DNA of 64,000 nucleotides from Escherichia coli (GTDB taxonomy: Bacteria > Pseudomonadota > Gammaproteobacteria > Enterobacterales > Enterobacteriaceae). The stretch lies in the NCBI RefSeq assembly GCF_024700885.2, contig NZ_CP117016.1; one strand, given 5' to 3'. The notes under the pieces were generated by a model, which saw only the letters and a program-made list of their open reading frames with translations, was not told the DNA's origin and did no database searches. A program made the translations under genes and the position numbers. The first letter of the stretch is position 1. Each line of letters starts with the position of its first letter. Of the stretch, positions 23,269-40,462 are shown one piece after another.

Positions 23269-24486
23269 ATGGCGCTGTCTGATGCGTGGTTGCGTTCAGT
23301 CGTTGGAAAGGAACGTGATAAGGTTTTGGTTAAATCCGATCGTGATGGTCTGTCTGTCAGAGTATCACCGAAAGGTCGCGTAGTGTTCCAATATCGTTAT
23401 CAATGGGCAGGGAAAGGTGAGCGCCTTGATATCGGAACTTACCCGGCAACTGGATTAAAAGAGGCCAGAGAAGAAGTTATCCGTCTCCGTGGTGAACTCG
23501 AGTCAAACCGCAATCCACGATTAGTCAGGCAGGCTGAAAAACGAAAAGCTACTGAAGCCATGACGGTAGAGTCTGTGATCCGTGCCTGGTATGAAGCATA
23601 TTGTGTAAAAAATAAAAAAGGTTCTGAACAGATACTCCGCTCGTTTGAGCTGCACCTGTTCTCTAAAATCGGGAATATCCCTCACGATGCAGCTACATTG
23701 CATGATTGGTTAGAAGTCCTGGAGCCTCTTAGCACTAAGACTCCAGCAATAGCAGACCGATTGCTAATTAACGCAAAGCAGGCCCATGTCTGGGCGTATA
23801 AGAGAAAGCTCATTGAAACTCGCCCACTGTCGGATATCACGGGTAAAGATATGGATATCCGTAAAGGTCAGAAGAAACGGTTTCTGACACATGATGAAAT
23901 TAAAATCCTTTATGCTGCGATCGATGGTTCTCGAATGGTTCCTAAATACCGGGCCTTCATTAAACTATTGCTGCATTTTGGCTGCCGTAGTTCAGAGCTA
24001 ATTACCGCCAGGGTGGACGATTTTGATTTCATTAATAAAGTATGGACTGTACCACCAGAACGACATAAGACTGGGGAGATAACAGGCGAACCGCTAAAGC
24101 GGCCCATTATTGAACCGGTTGAAGAGCTTATAAAGTACGCTATTTCTATGAACAATGGTTCCGATATGCTTTTTACTAAGGAAGGAAGCAGGGAACCCGT
24201 TGGTCGGACATCATTGCAGTCGCTGCCTTACAATTTAATGCAGTACGCATGGCGGCGTTTGGGGTATCAATTCCCTCATTGGTCTCTTCATGATTTGAGG
24301 CGAACAGCACGAACAAACTTTTCTGATCTTACTGCGCCTCATATTGCAGAAATAATGCTAGGTCATAAACTGCCAGGGGTATGGCAGGTTTATGACAAGA
24401 GCGATTATTTAGATGAACAGCGTAAAGCTTACCAGGCATGGTGGGAGAGAGTTGAATCGATAGTTACTTGTACTTGTTCAGACTAG
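23269..24486 (+). CDS. int: tyrosine site-specific integrase
   Basis: 405-aa ORF; C-terminal catalytic region with HDLRRTARTN and LGHKLPGVWQVYD (conserved R, H-x-x-R and Tyr); GGTGAG RBS. Confidence 0.9.
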   Translation: MALSDAWLRSVVGKERDKVLVKSDRDGLSVRVSPKGRVVFQYRYQWAGKGERLDIGTYPATGLKEAREEVIRLRGELESNRNPRLVRQAEKRKATEAMTVESVIRAWYEAYCVKNKKGSEQILRSFELHLFSKIGNIPHDAATLHDWLEVLEPLSTKTPAIADRLLINAKQAHVWAYKRKLIETRPLSDITGKDMDIRKGQKKRFLTHDEIKILYAAIDGSRMVPKYRAFIKLLLHFGCRSSELITARVDDFDFINKVWTVPPERHKTGEITGEPLKRPIIEPVEELIKYAISMNNGSDMLFTKEGSREPVGRTSLQSLPYNLMQYAWRRLGYQFPHWSLHDLRRTARTNFSDLTAPHIAEIMLGHKLPGVWQVYDKSDYLDEQRKAYQAWWERVESIVTCTCSD

Positions 24487-24619
24487 AACTGACATTTTGC
24501 ATAGGCAGAACGCAATTATGCATATTGCGGTATAATCCCCTTCTTAAAACTGTAAGAACTGCTTGCTAATCCTTGCAGTTTTTGATTATAACATTTTTAT
24601 TTGTTTATTAGGATTTTTG

Positions 24620-26752
24620 ATGGAACTGTTACAGGAACACGGGGCGATACTTAAAGTTGTAATCATGCCTACTACTGGGGAACAAACCATAATCCAAGGT
24701 TTCGATACTGGCCTCCTCAACCCAGAGATATCCAACATTCTTTTTTTATTGGCCAAAACACCAAAAGAAATTAGTGAGATTTTTGTCAATGAAAATGATA
24801 ACTTTCAGCCTACTCTAAGCGGGCTAAATCCTATTTTTTTAATATCTAAAGAAAATCTTGAAAAAATACCAGATATTTATCAAACGCCATTTTGCTTAAT
24901 TTTTTGTGCTAAAGAAGATTTTTCGTATGTTTGTGCTTTAAAAAAACATTTTGCTATACCACCTATAATTTGTTGCAATTCTAAACGCGCTGATCTACCA
25001 CTTAATAAGATTAATAGTATATACTCATTTGATAAGGTGCTCTTCTCTCGGTTGAAATTCATTGAGGATAAAATAAGAAAAAATCACAGTGAAAAGAAAA
25101 TATCAACGAAGTTGAAGCGAAGAGGGGCTTTATTTAATAAATCACCTTGGAGATCGACGCTTAACAATTCAACACTACCCAATGAGTTGTTAATTGAATC
25201 ACTTGGCTATATGCTATCTCCACCAAAAAGAATTAAAGATGGTAGTAGCAAAAGAGAGTTTATAGAAATAATACTTCATAGCGTTGATGCATACACCGAA
25301 TGTTTAAAGGAATTAGATATACCACTTCCAACGGAAGTCTTACTTTTTGCTCCGGGTATGCACTCTTTTTTATATGATAAAAATAATGACTTTTATGAGT
25401 TAATAACGGAAAATTTATCCACAATTGAGAAAAAATTCCTTATTGATGGAGTGTTGAGGAATCCAGGCTATTCTGGAATTAGACTTGATATAAATTCAGA
25501 TAGAAAAGAACTTTTTAAAAGTCCTGCTTTCCGTTACCTCACCTCACTAAGACGAGCTGAAATGCGATTAACAACAGCTGCGATTACTTTATTTAGCATA
25601 AATAAAAAAATCCCAGCAATAAGATTGCCAAATGCAATAAATCATTACTCCAATTATTTGAAAAATCTTGAAGATCTTGCAACTTCTTCTGGGATAAATA
25701 GTGAAGCATTCATCACTAAATCTAAAGCATTCAATACTGTTATTCGAAGAGCCCTTGGTTGCAAGTTGAGAACATATATAAGTAAAAACTATAGCGATTT
25801 GTCCTTTGTTTGTGATGTACCATTGGATTGGATTAGGTTTAATAACATACCTATAATGTTCAGTCATGAGATATCAAGAATAAATGCTACGCCTGGTAAC
25901 GTTCTTCTACAGAGCGCCTCTGCTTTTCCGCGCGTTTTAGTAAAAGCATCTGAGTTGAGAAAGGTTTTAGTTATACGTTCTTTTGAGCCTGATGATCACT
26001 TAAAGTTCATATTAGAGAACGCAATTGAGATATTTAAAAAACAGATGCCAGATCTTGATTGCGAGATTATTGATGTTAGATCGAAAGCTGAGTTTATTGA
26101 TGCTCTAAATCAATATCAAGGTCATATTCTTGTTATGGATTGTCATGGAAACCATGATGGCAATGGGAGTCATGGATGGTTAATAATAGGTGAGGATAAA
26201 GTGGACACTTGGAGTTTGAGAAAAATAGCAAGAATTCCTCCTATCGTAATTCTGAGTGCATGTTTAACATCTGCCCTAAGTGGTTCTCATGCCTCTGTTG
26301 CTAATGGCTTCGTTATAAGTGGTGCATTAAGTGTCATCGGAACATTACTGCCTGTAAATGCGATAGACTCTGCTGTTTTTGTAAGTCGGTTGATCTACCG
26401 GTTTTACGAGTTTCCTTCGACGCTATCTACAAATTTTACACATGTTAATGTAAGGCTTTTTCTTTCTGTTTTTCTTAGGATGTCCTATGCAAGCGATTTA
26501 ATAAGAGGATTTTTATCTGAAGATTTGATACCGAATAATTCATGGAAGAAAGATGCAGTTGATATTAACATGTATATAAACATGCTTCACCATGATTGGT
26601 ATGATTATGTAATTAACAAATTGACGATGTTAACGGGGCTCACGAAAAAAGATGTACTTGATTTTATCGATAGAAAATTATTCATAACCGAAACTATGTG
26701 CTATAGCCAAATTGGATTTCCAGATGCAATCACAATTAGTCTTAAAGATTGA
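24620..26752 (+). CDS. large AT-rich cargo protein with C-terminal caspase-like (CHAT-type) His/Cys protease signature; candidate defence protein
   Basis: ATG at 24620 (AGGA 6 nt upstream) gives ~710 aa. C-terminal region HILVMDCHGNHDGNGSHGWLIIGE...IPPIVILSACLTSALSGSH...GALSVIGTLLPVNAIDSAVFVSRLIYRFY has the His (HG) then Cys (SAC) spacing of clan-CD peptidases. N-terminal ~500 aa unassigned. Confidence 0.7.
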   Translation: MELLQEHGAILKVVIMPTTGEQTIIQGFDTGLLNPEISNILFLLAKTPKEISEIFVNENDNFQPTLSGLNPIFLISKENLEKIPDIYQTPFCLIFCAKEDFSYVCALKKHFAIPPIICCNSKRADLPLNKINSIYSFDKVLFSRLKFIEDKIRKNHSEKKISTKLKRRGALFNKSPWRSTLNNSTLPNELLIESLGYMLSPPKRIKDGSSKREFIEIILHSVDAYTECLKELDIPLPTEVLLFAPGMHSFLYDKNNDFYELITENLSTIEKKFLIDGVLRNPGYSGIRLDINSDRKELFKSPAFRYLTSLRRAEMRLTTAAITLFSINKKIPAIRLPNAINHYSNYLKNLEDLATSSGINSEAFITKSKAFNTVIRRALGCKLRTYISKNYSDLSFVCDVPLDWIRFNNIPIMFSHEISRINATPGNVLLQSASAFPRVLVKASELRKVLVIRSFEPDDHLKFILENAIEIFKKQMPDLDCEIIDVRSKAEFIDALNQYQGHILVMDCHGNHDGNGSHGWLIIGEDKVDTWSLRKIARIPPIVILSACLTSALSGSHASVANGFVISGALSVIGTLLPVNAIDSAVFVSRLIYRFYEFPSTLSTNFTHVNVRLFLSVFLRMSYASDLIRGFLSEDLIPNNSWKKDAVDINMYINMLHHDWYDYVINKLTMLTGLTKKDVLDFIDRKLFITETMCYSQIGFPDAITISLKD

Positions 26753-29992: not shown

Positions 29993-30127
29993 ACAAAACA
30001 GAGAAGAACACCTGCGGTGGCAGCCGCCCGGATGGATTGGGTTATGAGCCCGTCGTCCGGTGATGCCCTTCTCTGTTTTGTAAAAAGAGCGGTACCAGCC
30101 GGAAGCAAGTGTACAAACTGGTACCGC
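29993..30127 (-). other. two tandem stem-loops in the pL-proximal leader (candidate structured RNA element)
   Basis: SL-I has a 14-bp perfect stem, acaaaacagagaag (29993-30006) pairing with cttctctgttttgt (30068-30081). SL-II has a 10-bp perfect stem, gcggtaccag (30089-30098) pairing with ctggtaccgc (30118-30127). Neither is followed by a U-run on either strand. Confidence 0.35.
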
Positions 30128-36081: not shown

Positions 36082-37077
36082 GTGACCGTGAGAGCACTAC
36101 TGACCCCTGAAATTGCCCCGCGTATGGGGATCGTATTGTTCAGGCCAGGTTCAGAGCTGATGCCCCTGTTTATGCAGGGGCGTGTCCTGCTGGAGCCTGA
36201 GCCGGAACGTTATTCATCTTTCGCCAGTGGTGCCGTTCCGGCGGCATCACAACCGCTGGCGGATGATCCTGCCGTTCGGGCCGTGTTCCGCAATGAGGCA
36301 GTGATCCGTCGTGCTGGTGGCGTGGAATGTCTTGAAAGCTGGTTACTTCGTGAAAAAGGCTGCCAGTGGCCTCATTCCGACTGGCACAGCGAGAACATGA
36401 CCACAATGCGACACGCGCCGGGCGCAATCCGTCTGTGCTGGCACTGCGATAACCAGCTGCGCGATCAGTTCACGGAACGGCTGGAATCAATGGCAACGGA
36501 TAACTGTGCCCGCTGGGTGTTGTCTGTTGTGCGTCGGGATCTCGGTTTTGATGACAGTCACGTTGTGACAATGCCGGAACTGTGCTGGTGGCTGATTCGT
36601 AATGACCTGGCGGATGCCTTACCGGAAAGTGCAGCCCGTAAGGCACTGAGATTACCAAAGCCTGTTGTGCCGTCTGTCACCCGGGAAAGTGACCTTGTGC
36701 CTTCGGTTCCTGCCACCAGCATCATCCAGGATAAAGCGAAAAAGGTGCTGGCGCTGAAAGTGGATCCGGAGTCGCCGGAGTCTTTTATGTTACGCCCAAA
36801 ACGTCGCCGCTGGGTTAATGAAAAGTACACGCGCTGGGTTAAGACACAGCCGTGTGCATGTTGTGGAAAGCCCGCTGATGATCCCCACCACCTGATAGGT
36901 CACGGTCAGGGTGGAATGGGAACAAAAGCGCATGACCTCTTTGTGTTGCCTTTGTGCAGAAAGCATCACGACGAGCTGCATGCGGATACCGTGGCATTTG
37001 AAGAGAAGTATGGCTCTCAGCTGGAGCTGATATTTCGTTTTATCGATCGTGCGCTGGCAATTGGCGTATTGGCGTAA
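36082..37077 (+). CDS. DUF968-family phage protein
   Basis: 331-aa ORF (GTG start as listed, or ATG at 36124) with C-terminal C-x-C-C ... H-H motif (CACCGKPADDPHHLIGHG...LCRKHHDELH). Confidence 0.65.
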   Translation: MTVRALLTPEIAPRMGIVLFRPGSELMPLFMQGRVLLEPEPERYSSFASGAVPAASQPLADDPAVRAVFRNEAVIRRAGGVECLESWLLREKGCQWPHSDWHSENMTTMRHAPGAIRLCWHCDNQLRDQFTERLESMATDNCARWVLSVVRRDLGFDDSHVVTMPELCWWLIRNDLADALPESAARKALRLPKPVVPSVTRESDLVPSVPATSIIQDKAKKVLALKVDPESPESFMLRPKRRRWVNEKYTRWVKTQPCACCGKPADDPHHLIGHGQGGMGTKAHDLFVLPLCRKHHDELHADTVAFEEKYGSQLELIFRFIDRALAIGVLA

Positions 37078-37090
37078 GTGGAGAACGAGC

Positions 37091-37843
37091 ATGAACCTTG
37101 AAGCCTTACCAAAATATTACTCCCCAAAATCTCCAAAATTGAGCGATGACGCACCGGCGACAGGCTCAGGTGGTTTAACGATTACGGATGTGATGGCTGC
37201 GCAGGGGATGGTGCAGTCGAAAGCACCGCTTGGGTTTGCCTTATTCCTGGCAAAAGTTGGTGTTCAGGATCCTCAATTTGCGATTGAAGGTCTGCTCAAT
37301 TACGCGATGGCACTGGATAACCCGACATTGAACAAATTGAGTGAAGAAACCCGGTTACAGATCATCCCTTACCTTGTGAATTTTGCCTTTGCTGATTATT
37401 CCAGGTCTGCGGCAAGTAAGGCTCGCTGTGAGCATTGTGCTGGTACTGGATTTCATAATGTATTGCGCGAAGTGGTGAAACACTCCAGAAGCGGGGAATC
37501 TGTTATCAAGGAAGAGTGGGTGAAGGAACTATGTCAGCATTGTCATGGTAAGGGAGAAGTCAGCACAGCGTGCAGAGGGTGTAAGGGTAAAGGTATTGTC
37601 CTGGATGAAAAAAGGACCCGGCTTCATGGCACGCCTGTTTATAAGATTTGTGGGCGTTGCAATGGAAACCGGTTTAGCCGTTTACCAACCACACTGGCGC
37701 GGCATCATGTCCAGAAGCTGGTACCAGACCTGACGGATTATCAGTGGTACAAAGGATATGCAGATGTCATTGATAAACTGGTTACAAAGTGCTGGCAGGA
37801 AGAAGCATATGCAGAGATACAATTGAGAAATGTGACAAGATAA
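37091..37843 (+). CDS. putative late-gene antiterminator (Q-like, zinc-finger rich)
   Basis: 250-aa ORF from ATG 37091 (GGAG RBS); several CxxC pairs (CEHCAGTG, CQHCHGKG, CRGCKGKG, CGRCNG); sits immediately upstream of the tR'-like terminator and lysis cassette. Confidence 0.45.
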   Translation: MNLEALPKYYSPKSPKLSDDAPATGSGGLTITDVMAAQGMVQSKAPLGFALFLAKVGVQDPQFAIEGLLNYAMALDNPTLNKLSEETRLQIIPYLVNFAFADYSRSAASKARCEHCAGTGFHNVLREVVKHSRSGESVIKEEWVKELCQHCHGKGEVSTACRGCKGKGIVLDEKRTRLHGTPVYKICGRCNGNRFSRLPTTLARHHVQKLVPDLTDYQWYKGYADVIDKLVTKCWQEEAYAEIQLRNVTR

Positions 37844-37950
37844 ATGGTTTTCGCCGAAGATGACGACATGATGCTTGCATTTTTCAAAAAATATGGATAA
37901 GATTTTCCCAACGATGGGCTTTGTATGTCTACCGTTGATAAGATTTAAGA

Positions 37951-37975
37951 ACCCGCCACTGAGCGGGTTTTTTTG
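37951..37975 (+). terminator. rho-independent terminator (tR'-like), copy 1
   Basis: acccgc-cactga-gcgggt hairpin followed by T7. Confidence 0.7.
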
Positions 37976-38132
37976 TGCCAGATGTCTCATGAAACTATGA
38001 AATGGATTGGTGCGTTAAACATTTTTTCTTATTATCTTTTAGATTTTGGAGAGATGGTTAACGTCTGTATTCCAGAAACTCGATGATTATTTAATAAATT
38101 AGTTTCAATGATGCTTCTAGGTTATGACTGTA

Positions 38133-38549
38133 ATGAAAAAGGTATTAATAGCAGCGATAGGTTTTTGTTTAGTTGGTTGTGCAGGTATGAAATTACCTGA
38201 GTATTCGCAAGTTAAAGCAAGTCCGTATTATACAGATTGCCGTGCGTTTGCCATGGATGTTTATAAAAATGATGGATACAGCAAAATTGCGAAAACTACT
38301 ATCCTTAGCATGGATGATGTGAAGGCTAGATATATTGTGACAGGGTGTGTAGTTGCTATGGGGAAAAACACTGTAGAGGAAATCAAAGCTGATCTCTCTG
38401 CTAAAGGGAGTTCTTTTGGGCTTATCAGTGGAGCTTGTTCTAGTGCGGCATGTCGGGTTGATGTAGAGCAGCAAATGAACGCTTATGTACTTGGTAGTTA
38501 TTATGCTGCAAATAAAAAATTCCCGGATAAAATGAAAGCAGAGTTTTAA
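38133..38549 (+). CDS. AT-rich lipoprotein (moron)
   Basis: Signal peptide with lipobox MKKVLIAAIGFCLVGC; ~138 aa from ATG 38133 (ORF from 38124); markedly AT-rich; bracketed by two copies of the same terminator. Confidence 0.7.
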   Translation: MKKVLIAAIGFCLVGCAGMKLPEYSQVKASPYYTDCRAFAMDVYKNDGYSKIAKTTILSMDDVKARYIVTGCVVAMGKNTVEEIKADLSAKGSSFGLISGACSSAACRVDVEQQMNAYVLGSYYAANKKFPDKMKAEF

Positions 38550-38627
38550 GTAAACCTTGTTTTCGATTATATGTCGAAGATAAATGTTAGTAACGGCATA
38601 ATAAGTAAATATATAGCTGTGATAGCA

Positions 38628-38650
38628 ACCCGCCACTGAGCGGGTTTTTT
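38628..38650 (+). terminator. rho-independent terminator, copy 2 (duplicate of 37951-37975)
   Basis: Identical acccgccactgagcgggt hairpin followed by T6. Confidence 0.7.
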
Positions 38651-38748
38651 GTACCTGTAAACTTGGTGCAGTACAGTAAACACGCTGGTGGTCGTGAATA
38701 CTGACTTTTTATCTTGCTGGCTTTTTAGACAAGAGTTATTGGTATGTC

Positions 38749-38976
38749 ATGTTAACCAGAAGGGAAAAAGACATGCTAAAACAGCAAGATATGACAGAAA
38801 CCGCCGCCGCAGTCCTTCATTTCTTACCTGCTGACAAGTGGGTAACGCCACGCATGATGACGAGAACTACCGGAGTAAGCGAAGCCCGGTGCCAGTTAAT
38901 ACTGACTCAGTTAGTTCTGGCGGGTCTGGCGAAGGATAACGGCGGGTACGGGAATAAATTCAGACGCTGCCAGTAA
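38749..38976 (+). CDS. small putative DNA-binding protein
   Basis: 75-aa ORF (MLTRREKDMLKQQDMTETAAAVLHFLPADKWVTPRMMTRTTGVSEARCQLILTQLVLAGLAKDNGG...) with a winged-helix-like segment. Confidence 0.4.
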   Translation: MLTRREKDMLKQQDMTETAAAVLHFLPADKWVTPRMMTRTTGVSEARCQLILTQLVLAGLAKDNGGYGNKFRRCQ

Positions 38977-39126
38977 TGGCGGTTTCCTGCTGTGAAAATG
39001 GGCGGCTGGTGGGTGTTGGTAGCACCTGCCAGCCATTCGCTCATGCTTACTGGTCACAAGCGAACCATGGCCCACTGCTTTAGCGCAAAAGCAGAGTGAG
39101 CCTACCAGAGTTACGCTTACTGATTC

Positions 39127-40179
39127 ATGAAAAATACTGTAAAAATAAACAGTGTTGATTTAATCAACGCTGATTGCCTGCATTTTATTCAGTCCCTGCC
39201 TGATGATTCCATTGACCTGATTGTTACCGATCCGCCGTACTTCAAGGTGAAACCCAACGGCTGGGACAATCAGTGGAAAGGGGACGAAGATTACCTTAAG
39301 TGGCTGGACCACTGTCTGGCCCAGTTCTGGCGGGTGTTAAAACCTGCCGGAAGCCTTTACCTGTTCTGTGGGCATCGCCTGGCATCTGATATTGAGATCA
39401 TGATGCGTGAACGTTTCAACGTGCTTAACCATATCATCTGGGCGAAGCCGTCCGGACGTTGGAATGGGTGTAATAAAGAAAGTCTGCGCGCATATTTTCC
39501 TGCCACAGAGCGCGTTCTGTTTGCTGAACATTACCAGGGGCCATATCGCGGCAAAAGTGACGGCTATGCAGCAAAAGAAAGGGAACTCAAACAGCACATA
39601 ATGGCACCGCTGATATCGTATTTCAGGGATGCTCGTGCCGAACTGGGTATAACGGCAAAACAAATTGCCGAAGCCACAGGTAAGAAAAATATGGTTTCCC
39701 ACTGGTTTGGTGCCAGTCAGTGGCAGTTGCCGAATGAGGCTGACTATCGGAAGTTACAGGCACTGTTTTCCCGTATAGCGGCAGAGAAGTTTCAGGAACA
39801 ACAACTGGAACAACCACACCACCAGCTGGTGGCATCTTATGATTCACTGAATCGTAAATATTCTGAATTGCTGGATGAGTTTAAATCTCTCCGGCGCTAT
39901 TTCTCCGTATCAGTCTCCGTGCCTTATACCGATGTCTGGATGCATAAACCCGTTCAGTTCTACCCGGGGAAACATCCGTGTGAGAAACCGGCGGATATGC
40001 TCAGGCAAATAATCAATGCCAGTAGTCGACCTGGTGATCTGGTTGCTGATTTTTTTATGGGATCCGGTTCCACAATAAAAGCAGCAATGGCGCTGGGGCG
40101 TCGGGCCTTAGGTGTTGAGCTTGAGTCAGAGCGGTTTAACCAGACAGTGAAAGAGATAAACGAGCTGGTGGGGAAATAA
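39127..40179 (+). CDS. orphan DNA methyltransferase (N6-adenine or N4-cytosine class, DPPY motif)
   Basis: 350-aa ORF; catalytic motif IVTDPPYF near the N-terminus and a C-terminal SAM-binding region (FFMGSGST); no adjacent restriction endonuclease gene. Confidence 0.85.
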
Positions 40180-40246
40180 TCTGGTGGCCACGTCAGGTGG
40201 CCTTTTTATTTCCATTACACAGCACCCGCATCTGCGAGGTGGGGTT

Positions 40247-40462
40247 ATGAAATCCATGGATAAGTTAACAACGGGTGTCGCCTATGGCACCTCAGCAGGT
40301 AGTGCCGGGTACTGGTTTTTACAGTTGCTCGATAAAGTCACGCCCTCACAGTGGGCGGCAATAGGTGTGCTGGGTAGTCTGGTATTTGGCCTGCTGACGT
40401 ACCTGACAAACCTTTATTTCAAGATTAAAGAAGATAAGCGCAAGGCTGCGAGAGGTGAATAA
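40247..40462 (+). CDS. class II holin (phage 21 S-type pinholin)
   Basis: 71-aa [32 protein letters not shown]... with dual-start motif M-K-S-M and two TM segments; near-identical to S21 as I recall it. Confidence 0.8.

Follow-up and report, generated by a model that had tools for sequence, protein, structure and literature searches.

Introduction

Lambdoid morons such as HK97 gene 15 and lambda bor and lom (Juhala et al. 2000) are extra genes that are absent in close relatives, deviate in GC content, carry their own terminator and specify an envelope product; the composition, presence/absence and terminator criteria have been reviewed (PMC3594210). The region downstream of the late promoter PR' is known as a site where morons insert, and it has stx1/stx2 operons, tRNA genes and anti-small RNAs (anti-sRNAs) in various phages (PMC4104026). 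Here we analyse an AT-rich cassette with a single lipoprotein gene that occupies this site, at the terminator tR', in a lambdoid prophage of Escherichia coli (contig NZ_CP117016.1; the whole stretch analysed, 64,000 nucleotides long, is called the window). The cassette shows the deviant composition, the absence from close relatives, the terminator and the envelope product of the lambdoid morons. Unlike the classic examples, its promoter is a candidate only, and its terminator is a second copy of the resident tR' hairpin instead of a moron-specific one. The position is that of the other genes in the PR'/tR' hotspot, and late expression would likewise need read-through by the antiterminator Q; unlike the stx, tRNA and anti-sRNA cargo, the cargo here is an uncharacterised lipoprotein, and no Rfam family scores above threshold.

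Several other described systems are close to parts of this locus. Cor (phi80, N15, mEp167), Llp (T5) and Bor (lambda), phage lipoproteins that act by receptor blocking or give serum resistance, are, like the product of the cassette, small prophage-encoded lipoproteins with an outer-membrane sorting signal. The new lipoprotein differs from them in that it is matched by no Pfam, NCBIfam or PADLOC model, and thus by none for these families if the libraries hold them, and in a predicted all-helical fold without an informative neighbour. Short transcripts running from PR' to tR' are known as well, namely the 6S RNA of lambda and StxS of Stx phages. Without Q, the first terminator copy at this locus would similarly end a PR' RNA of ~65 nucleotides (nt) with two hairpins, for which no Rfam family was matched. 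Finally, models of modular lambdoid evolution and relaxed homologous recombination invoke boundary or linker sequences, short conserved sequences where homology starts and stops (PMC3945230). The repeat described below resembles them; unlike the postulated linkers, it is a predicted intrinsic terminator, and its contexts are far more numerous than those of neighbouring terminators.

A lipoprotein cassette between two copies of one terminator

We read the locus as an AT-rich single-gene moron for an outer-membrane-type lipoprotein, horizontally acquired and placed in the PR'/tR' hotspot of an Ayreon/mEp460-type lambdoid prophage, in which the two terminator hairpins are shared junction sequence and recombination takes place inside the repeat. 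We assign this reading a probability of roughly 70%. Its parts, in order, are as follows.

37950..37974, plus strand: terminator copy 1, taken as tR' (exact repeat; 10-bp hairpin with U7; Ayreon and SfV annotation; sole copy at empty sites)
37975..38132, plus strand: cassette leader with a weak candidate sigma-70 promoter
38133..38549 (or from 38124), plus strand: lipoprotein gene (open reading frame and translation; homologue alignment; substitution rates; phrog_4748)
38550..38626, plus strand: AT-rich 3' untranslated segment of the cassette, 77 nt (read from the sequence; missing from empty sites)
38627..38650, plus strand: terminator copy 2, end of the cassette and first 24 nt of the downstream module (exact repeat; top terminator-like scan match)

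The original prediction described a 26-nt terminator occurring twice around the gene. The duplication is real, and its exact length is 24 nt: AACCCGCCACTGAGCGGGTTTTTT is a perfect direct repeat at 37950-37973 and 38627-38650, with no third site in the 64 kb at up to three mismatches and 0 occurrences by chance in 100 shuffles. Copy 1 has a run of seven T (37968-37974) followed by GTGCC, and copy 2 a run of six T (38645-38650) followed by GTACC. If one mismatch and an indel of 1 nt are allowed, similarity between the copies extends over ~29-30 nt and goes no further; they are not part of a longer repeat. Each copy folds into a 7-bp G+C-rich stem (AACCCGC/GCGGGTT) with a 6-nt loop and a following U tract; in its sequence context, the stem of copy 1 lengthens to 10 bp, plus U7. 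A consensus scan placed copy 2 first among terminator-like sites and left copy 1 unlisted. The GenBank record of phage Ayreon (MF807953) annotates both copies as terminators and the gene as an open reading frame (ORF), all without comment, and the single copy in SfV is annotated likewise. The hotspot is also the best-known moron site, and the locus adds one more moron there, with an uncharacterised gene, of a known kind of element.

The composition of the insert sets it apart, with 31-39% GC across 37900-38700 vs ~50% on either side, and the AT-rich cassette with a lipobox gene that had been proposed from the letters of the DNA is borne out. Over 37000-40200 the window matches Escherichia phage Ayreon at 100% identity and mEp460 at 99.6%, and the same 3.2 kb is present at ≥99.8% identity in many E. 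coli chromosomes among the matches listed. It had also been proposed that the cassette sits at tR' and that relatives lacking it should be compared, and this comparison is clear-cut: in vB_EcoM-720R4 and SfV a single terminator is all that separates the same flanks, and the difference is exactly 677 bp, the spacing of the repeat. The cassette thus lies between genes that are adjacent in relatives.

Among 5426 complete E. coli genomes, 214 (~4%) carry the cassette, always whole, and the empty junction (200-nt probe fully covered) is found in 182. Loci with and without the cassette are intermingled among near-identical Q modules. The cassette body is complete in 20 phage records, including 15 Stx2c phages and one Stx2k phage, where it lies between Q and stx2; it is also present in the sequenced strains JJ1886 and JJ1887. 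One complete E. coli genome (NZ_OZ501612.1, ~4148013-4149440) has a copy with an IS1B-family element inserted in it. Homologues of the lipoprotein gene occur with more than one type of lysis cassette and in unrelated phage types, including ~110 kb phage-plasmids. We considered whether the cassette is more conserved than its flanks in the Stx2c phages (99.8% vs 95.1%), which would imply recent independent spread, and rejected this on segment-wise identities: Q, the cassette and the 75-amino-acid (aa) ORF that follows it are all at 99.5-99.8%, and the divergence lies in the methyltransferase (85.5%).

Origin of the two terminator copies

The position of homology breaks in related phages shows to which side each copy belongs. 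In cdtI, PhiR40_1 and 569R4, which have a different and shorter Q, homology to the window starts exactly at 38627, whereas the homology of 689R6 ends at 37974; that phage shares the Q and carries another moron, which brings its own promoter and a different terminator. A genome-wide probe found the same break points in hundreds of genomes. Judged from its sequence, copy 2 is therefore the cassette's own terminator (a predicted hairpin with U6, as expected for a moron) and simultaneously the start of the downstream module of the 75-aa ORF and the methyltransferase.

We propose that the hairpin is a conserved junction sequence, with which the Q module would end and alternative downstream modules would begin; a cassette lying between such modules would therefore be bracketed by one copy from each side. 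Homologous recombination at the 24-nt identity would precisely excise the cassette and leave chimeric single terminators at empty sites, and it would also re-assort the unit of Q, PR', terminator, cassette and terminator with different right-hand modules. The right-hand partner of the Q-cassette unit does vary. Efficient pairing takes a segment of at least 23-27 bp with Red-beta and of at least 31-34 bp with RecA (PMC3945230), and the 24-nt identity falls inside the Red-beta range.

The original prediction had instead explained the second copy as a duplication of the target terminator, by which a mobile cassette would have entered a single tR' and duplicated ~24-30 bp of it. In the window this looks plausible enough, the copies being identical over 24 nt and flanking the insert exactly. 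It does not hold in most carriers. Across 47 IMG/VR loci with the gene, both hairpins are present in every lambdoid locus not cut by a contig end, and they are usually different alleles, distinguished by loop base, length of the T run and tail: in most phages copy 1 has loop G, seven T and GTGCCTGATGT (GTGCC tail), and copy 2 has loop A, six T and GTACCTGTAAAC (GTACC tail). Variation within the hairpin is mostly at one loop position, with a single stem change in a few loci. The allele at empty sites is that of copy 2, one resembling copy 1 (SfV) or a chimera of both, not one ancestral sequence duplicated on both sides. Furthermore, copy 2 belongs to the downstream module even without the cassette, the hairpin is common to many modules, and neither a transposase or integrase nor terminal inverted repeats are present in the 677 bp (37974-38626).

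A Salmonella version of the cassette speaks against duplication as well. It has 74-76% protein identity at a synonymous divergence (dS) of ~1.6, lies downstream of a Q of an unrelated family, and is bracketed by a diverged pair of hairpins, AAGCCCGCCACTGAGCGGGT7GTACCTGAAAC upstream and the diverged but intact AACCCGCATTGCGCGGGT5GTATCC downstream. Taken together, target-site duplication is largely refuted, and we regard it as very improbable. In the Salmonella prophage (L012, 5433-5810) the second hairpin is followed, as read from the sequence, by methyltransferase C-terminal-like sequence and then by holin genes, which suggests a deletion that removed most of the methyltransferase.

The pair of loci most informative for recombination inside the repeat consists of an empty one (L085) and a filled one (L123) that are near-identical on both sides: the left flank aligns over 2939 nt at 99.9% and the right flank over 608 nt at 99.5%, and the two alignments overlap by the 29-nt repeat. 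The single hairpin of the empty locus is chimeric, with the loop and the GTGCC of copy 1 ahead of the tail of copy 2, and thus places the crossover inside the repeat. With this filled/empty pair and its chimeric junction, the locus is an unusually clean natural example of the gain, loss and re-assortment of a moron by recombination within a 24-nt predicted terminator.

The lipoprotein and its conservation

The gene encodes a precursor of 138 aa from the ATG at 38133, which is conserved across lineages, or of 141 aa from 38124. The precursor has a signal peptide and lipobox (MKKVLIAAIGFCLVG, with predicted cleavage before C); the lipobox, LVGC, matches the consensus [LVI][ASTVI][GAS]C. In eight homologues at 54-76% identity the Gly-Cys of the lipobox is invariant, position +2 is Ala or Ser and four further cysteines are kept, so that the invariant residues of the alignment include G18, C19, C39, C75, C105 and C110. 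Sorting to the outer membrane is predicted from the Ala (Ser in homologues) at +2. The AlphaFold2 model is a bundle of four to five helices with a mean predicted local distance difference test (pLDDT) score of 79. We expect that the protein is exported, receives its lipid at Cys16 (numbered in the 138-aa precursor) and reaches the outer membrane as a small helical bundle with disulfide bonds. Downstream of the stop codon, the hairpin follows after ~15 nt in the Salmonella version vs 77 nt here.

Searches for a function gave little. PHROGs assign the protein to phrog_4748, a family without a known function; 1.8 billion representative proteins were searched and yielded only nine hits; neither the structural-neighbour comparison nor a profile search of the PDB gave an informative match; and the names in public records are hypothetical protein, lipoprotein or, in mEp460, gp51. 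The lack of a family annotation is one of the grounds on which the ORF might be dismissed as no gene at all, the AT-rich insert then being non-coding or RNA-encoding. AT-rich DNA does yield spurious ORFs, and a 147-aa antisense ORF overlaps this one. Against this stand the conservation of the lipobox and of the four other cysteines, the confident structural model and the absence of any Rfam match reaching the family threshold in 37700-40400. Above all, the ratio of nonsynonymous to synonymous substitution rates (dN/dS) is 0.06-0.2 against five homologues, with dS above 1 and synonymous sites saturated, a substitution pattern that already refutes a non-coding insert; we consider its chance negligible. 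The same ratio indicates that the gene is under strong purifying selection.

As for a role, the original prediction had pointed to superinfection exclusion or host interaction as frequent activities of lipoprotein morons at this position. Our guess, made with low confidence, is an envelope modification useful to the lysogen, for example the exclusion of other phages or of toxins. Being common, strongly conserved and uncharacterised, the gene is a reasonable candidate for a lysogenic-conversion phenotype. The lipoprotein homologue has another small lipobox ORF starting ~10 nt behind it in phage-plasmid-like replicons of ~110 kb (Citrobacter) and in one metagenomic contig (L011, 4441-4740; L017, 751-1050). 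Its lipobox reads …LSGC or LSAC followed by AFPDKDGD…, and the two ORFs may form a pair; of the phage-plasmid hits, from Citrobacter, Cronobacter and Buttiauxella, those from Citrobacter were inspected for it.

Late promoter, leader and expression of the cassette

Expression of the cassette depends on the elements upstream of it, which are as follows.

37091..37843, plus strand: Q antiterminator, 250 aa (Pfam PF03589, E 1e-53; matches to the lambda Q structures 7UBM/7UBN and to 4MO1; Q in the Ayreon and SfV annotation)
37875..37915, plus strand: late promoter PR' (read from the sequence, by analogy with lambda PR')

The arrangement of PR' in lambda is the basis for placing the late promoter here, between the Q stop codon and the first hairpin, and we infer it by that analogy. 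The PR'-like elements are a -35 TTGCAT (37875-37880), a 17-nt spacer and a -10 TAAGAT (37898-37903), with a probable start near 37910 and a -10-like pause element, AACGAT, at 37910-37915. The AACGATGGGC motif reappears upstream of the same hairpin behind other Q modules. Copy 1 begins ~40 nt downstream of PR' and spans ~+41 to +64 from the presumed start, and because of this position we take it as tR'. It is the first intrinsic terminator after PR', and a lambda-family Q gene and a promoter-proximal pause element lie upstream, the promoter itself being a prediction. This Q also holds an inserted DnaJ-type CxxCxGxG zinc-finger segment (PF00684, E 3e-7), and is 250 aa long vs 207 aa for lambda Q.

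The cassette leader was checked for a promoter of its own. A candidate is present, TTGGTG (38007-38012) with a 17-nt spacer and TATTAT (38030-38035), which agrees with the consensus at 8 of 12 positions and stays below the scan threshold. The homologous site in Salmonella, TTGGTA-18-TATCAT, agrees at 9 of 12. Identity of the leader between the lineages is 59%; TTGGT and TAT.AT are invariant in the alignment, and the spacer differs. A promoter in the leader is thus weakly indicated. The small ORF annotated at 37973-38086, which overlaps the terminator tail and the promoter candidate, is probably spurious: the frame is open in Salmonella, without an ATG start and with weak similarity.

From these elements we propose the following scheme. 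In the lysogen, constitutive PR' transcripts would end at copy 1, and the weak leader promoter would drive the lipoprotein gene. Copy 2 would halt the lipoprotein transcript and thereby shield the methyltransferase and lysis genes from Q-independent transcription, an insulating role suggested by its position. Upon induction, Q-modified RNA polymerase would pass both copies; the gene would then be expressed late as well, and the extra terminator would be free of cost. Termination after the gene appears to have been selected, the main argument being that in the Salmonella lineage a second hairpin predicted to be functional has been kept despite sequence drift.

A simpler scheme would make the gene a late gene only. 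The cassette would then have no promoter of its own and would be expressed, like stx, from PR' by Q read-through of copy 1; copy 2 would be a neutral by-product of joining, and the protein would act in lytic growth, for example as a modulator of the envelope ahead of lysis or by preventing adsorption of progeny to debris. The scan has no promoter above its threshold in 37976-38132, the gene is always found in the Q-to-lysis interval of lambdoid phages and in the orientation of the late operon, terminators cost nothing in a Q-antiterminated operon, and the same hairpin precedes many tail genes where no moron promoter is evident. All this fits late-only expression. What fits it less well is the retention of copy 2 in every uncut lambdoid locus examined and in Salmonella, where its sequence has diverged but the hairpin and its T run are still there, a sign of selection for termination, and the conservation of TTGGT and TAT.AT between lineages whose synonymous sites are saturated. 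Moreover, homologues also lie outside the Q context, in the early-left region of prophages and in ~110 kb phage-plasmids, and must be expressed some other way there. We therefore hold late-only expression to be unlikely, while taking it seriously.

Several points weigh against the moron reading that we prefer. In E. coli the cassette always comes with a single Q module, whose conservation it does not exceed, so that mobility of the cassette on its own can at most be presumed there. The direction of the event separating L085 and L123, loss and not gain, is deduced from the chimeric junction. Pfam searches of the tested early-region ORFs found no single-strand annealing recombinase, only DUF551, DUF2303 and a YfbR-like protein. 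The promoter candidate, at 8/12 and unreported by the scan, is weak; without it, the gene would be a plain Q-dependent late gene like stx, and copy 2 would have no demonstrated role. Finally, our guess at the function of the lipoprotein is drawn from its predicted location.

The hairpin at other phage junctions

The exact hairpin is present in at least 120 IMG/VR contigs, from which we sampled 135 occurrences for their context (IMG/VR loci L020-L139). These fall into 39 unrelated upstream and 36 unrelated downstream contexts in 50 combinations, and the edges of the hairpin are where homology breaks off. For two control terminators of the same phage, with ~133 occurrences each, the numbers are 1-2 upstream and 2-5 downstream contexts. 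Among the sampled hairpin occurrences, four different downstream contexts are joined to the Q-leader context, and several upstream ones to that of the methyltransferase module. The hairpin follows several distinct Q-type leader contexts, with one upstream ORF confirmed as Q-like by its PHROG, and in Salmonella another Q family precedes a version with one mismatch. Elsewhere it stands 11-25 nt ahead of the start codon of genes for major tail, baseplate and tail-fibre proteins.

These contexts raise the possibility that the hairpin, AACCCGCC[A/G]CTGAGCGGGTTTTTT, is a portable junction terminator common to many unrelated temperate enterobacterial phages and works as a dedicated recombination linker. 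We put this forward tentatively and consider it somewhat doubtful. If it were true, accessory cassettes could plug in and out anywhere in Q-antiterminated late operons, in which additional terminators carry no cost, while the late genes stay insulated in the prophage; and if the wider pattern holds, terminators would be the linker sequences that have long been postulated for modular phage evolution.

In myovirus-like tail operons (L107, 8711-10545; L090, 8772-10786; L122; L095), different signal-peptide or lipoprotein ORFs, of 119 and 122 aa, 243 aa and 262 aa, lie between the baseplate-hub gene and the hairpin, which directly precedes a conserved baseplate-spike gene. Since these alternative secreted or lipoprotein ORFs end at the hairpin, it bounds other alternative morons too. 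Another locus (L039, 1211-5143, minus strand) has two exact copies 3909 nt apart, each before a tail-fibre or tailspike gene; the products of both begin with the shared N-terminus MALTMLAANNA. Between the copies lie one of these genes, that of the 641-aa tailspike, and, on the opposite strand, putative membrane-protein ORFs of 120 and 480 aa, which by their look we take to be similar to GtrA- and GtrC-type O-antigen-modification genes.

Neighbouring genes and other features of the window

The local gene order is a DUF968/YdfU gene, Q, the 677-bp AT-rich segment, an ORF of 68-75 aa, an N6/N4 DNA methyltransferase, holin, endolysin and Rz, the last three beginning from 40256. Downstream of the cassette lies one further feature.

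38651..40179, plus strand: right-hand late module, outside the cassette (Pfam PF01555, E 2e-42; phrog_331; Ayreon annotation)

This module consists of a conserved tail of ~40 nt, the winged-helix-like ORF of 68-75 aa (38749/38773-38976) and the methyltransferase gene (39127-40179). The tail directly behind copy 2 (38651-38691, GTACCTGTAAACTTGGTGCAGTACAGTAAACACGCTGGTGG) is kept even where the right-hand module has changed (PhiR47_1, context D3), and a diverged version of it follows tR' in other modules (context D2). The sub-threshold matches of the Rfam search over 37700-40400 were rejected: Trp and Leu leader-like matches were caused by the terminator hairpin, and STnc130 scored E 0.8.

An ArcA-modulated small RNA, sRNA-17, has been described from a mEp460-like prophage of E. 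coli K1 RS218 (PMC7719688). We considered an overlap with the cassette and rejected it: an exact match to the 5' part of sRNA-17 maps to 30089-30114 (plus strand), in the early-left region ~8 kb away. Further upstream, 23269-26749 (plus strand) holds a tyrosine integrase gene (23269-24483) followed by the gene for a 729-aa protein with a CHAT (caspase-like) domain, possibly a gene for defence or another accessory function at the end of the prophage.

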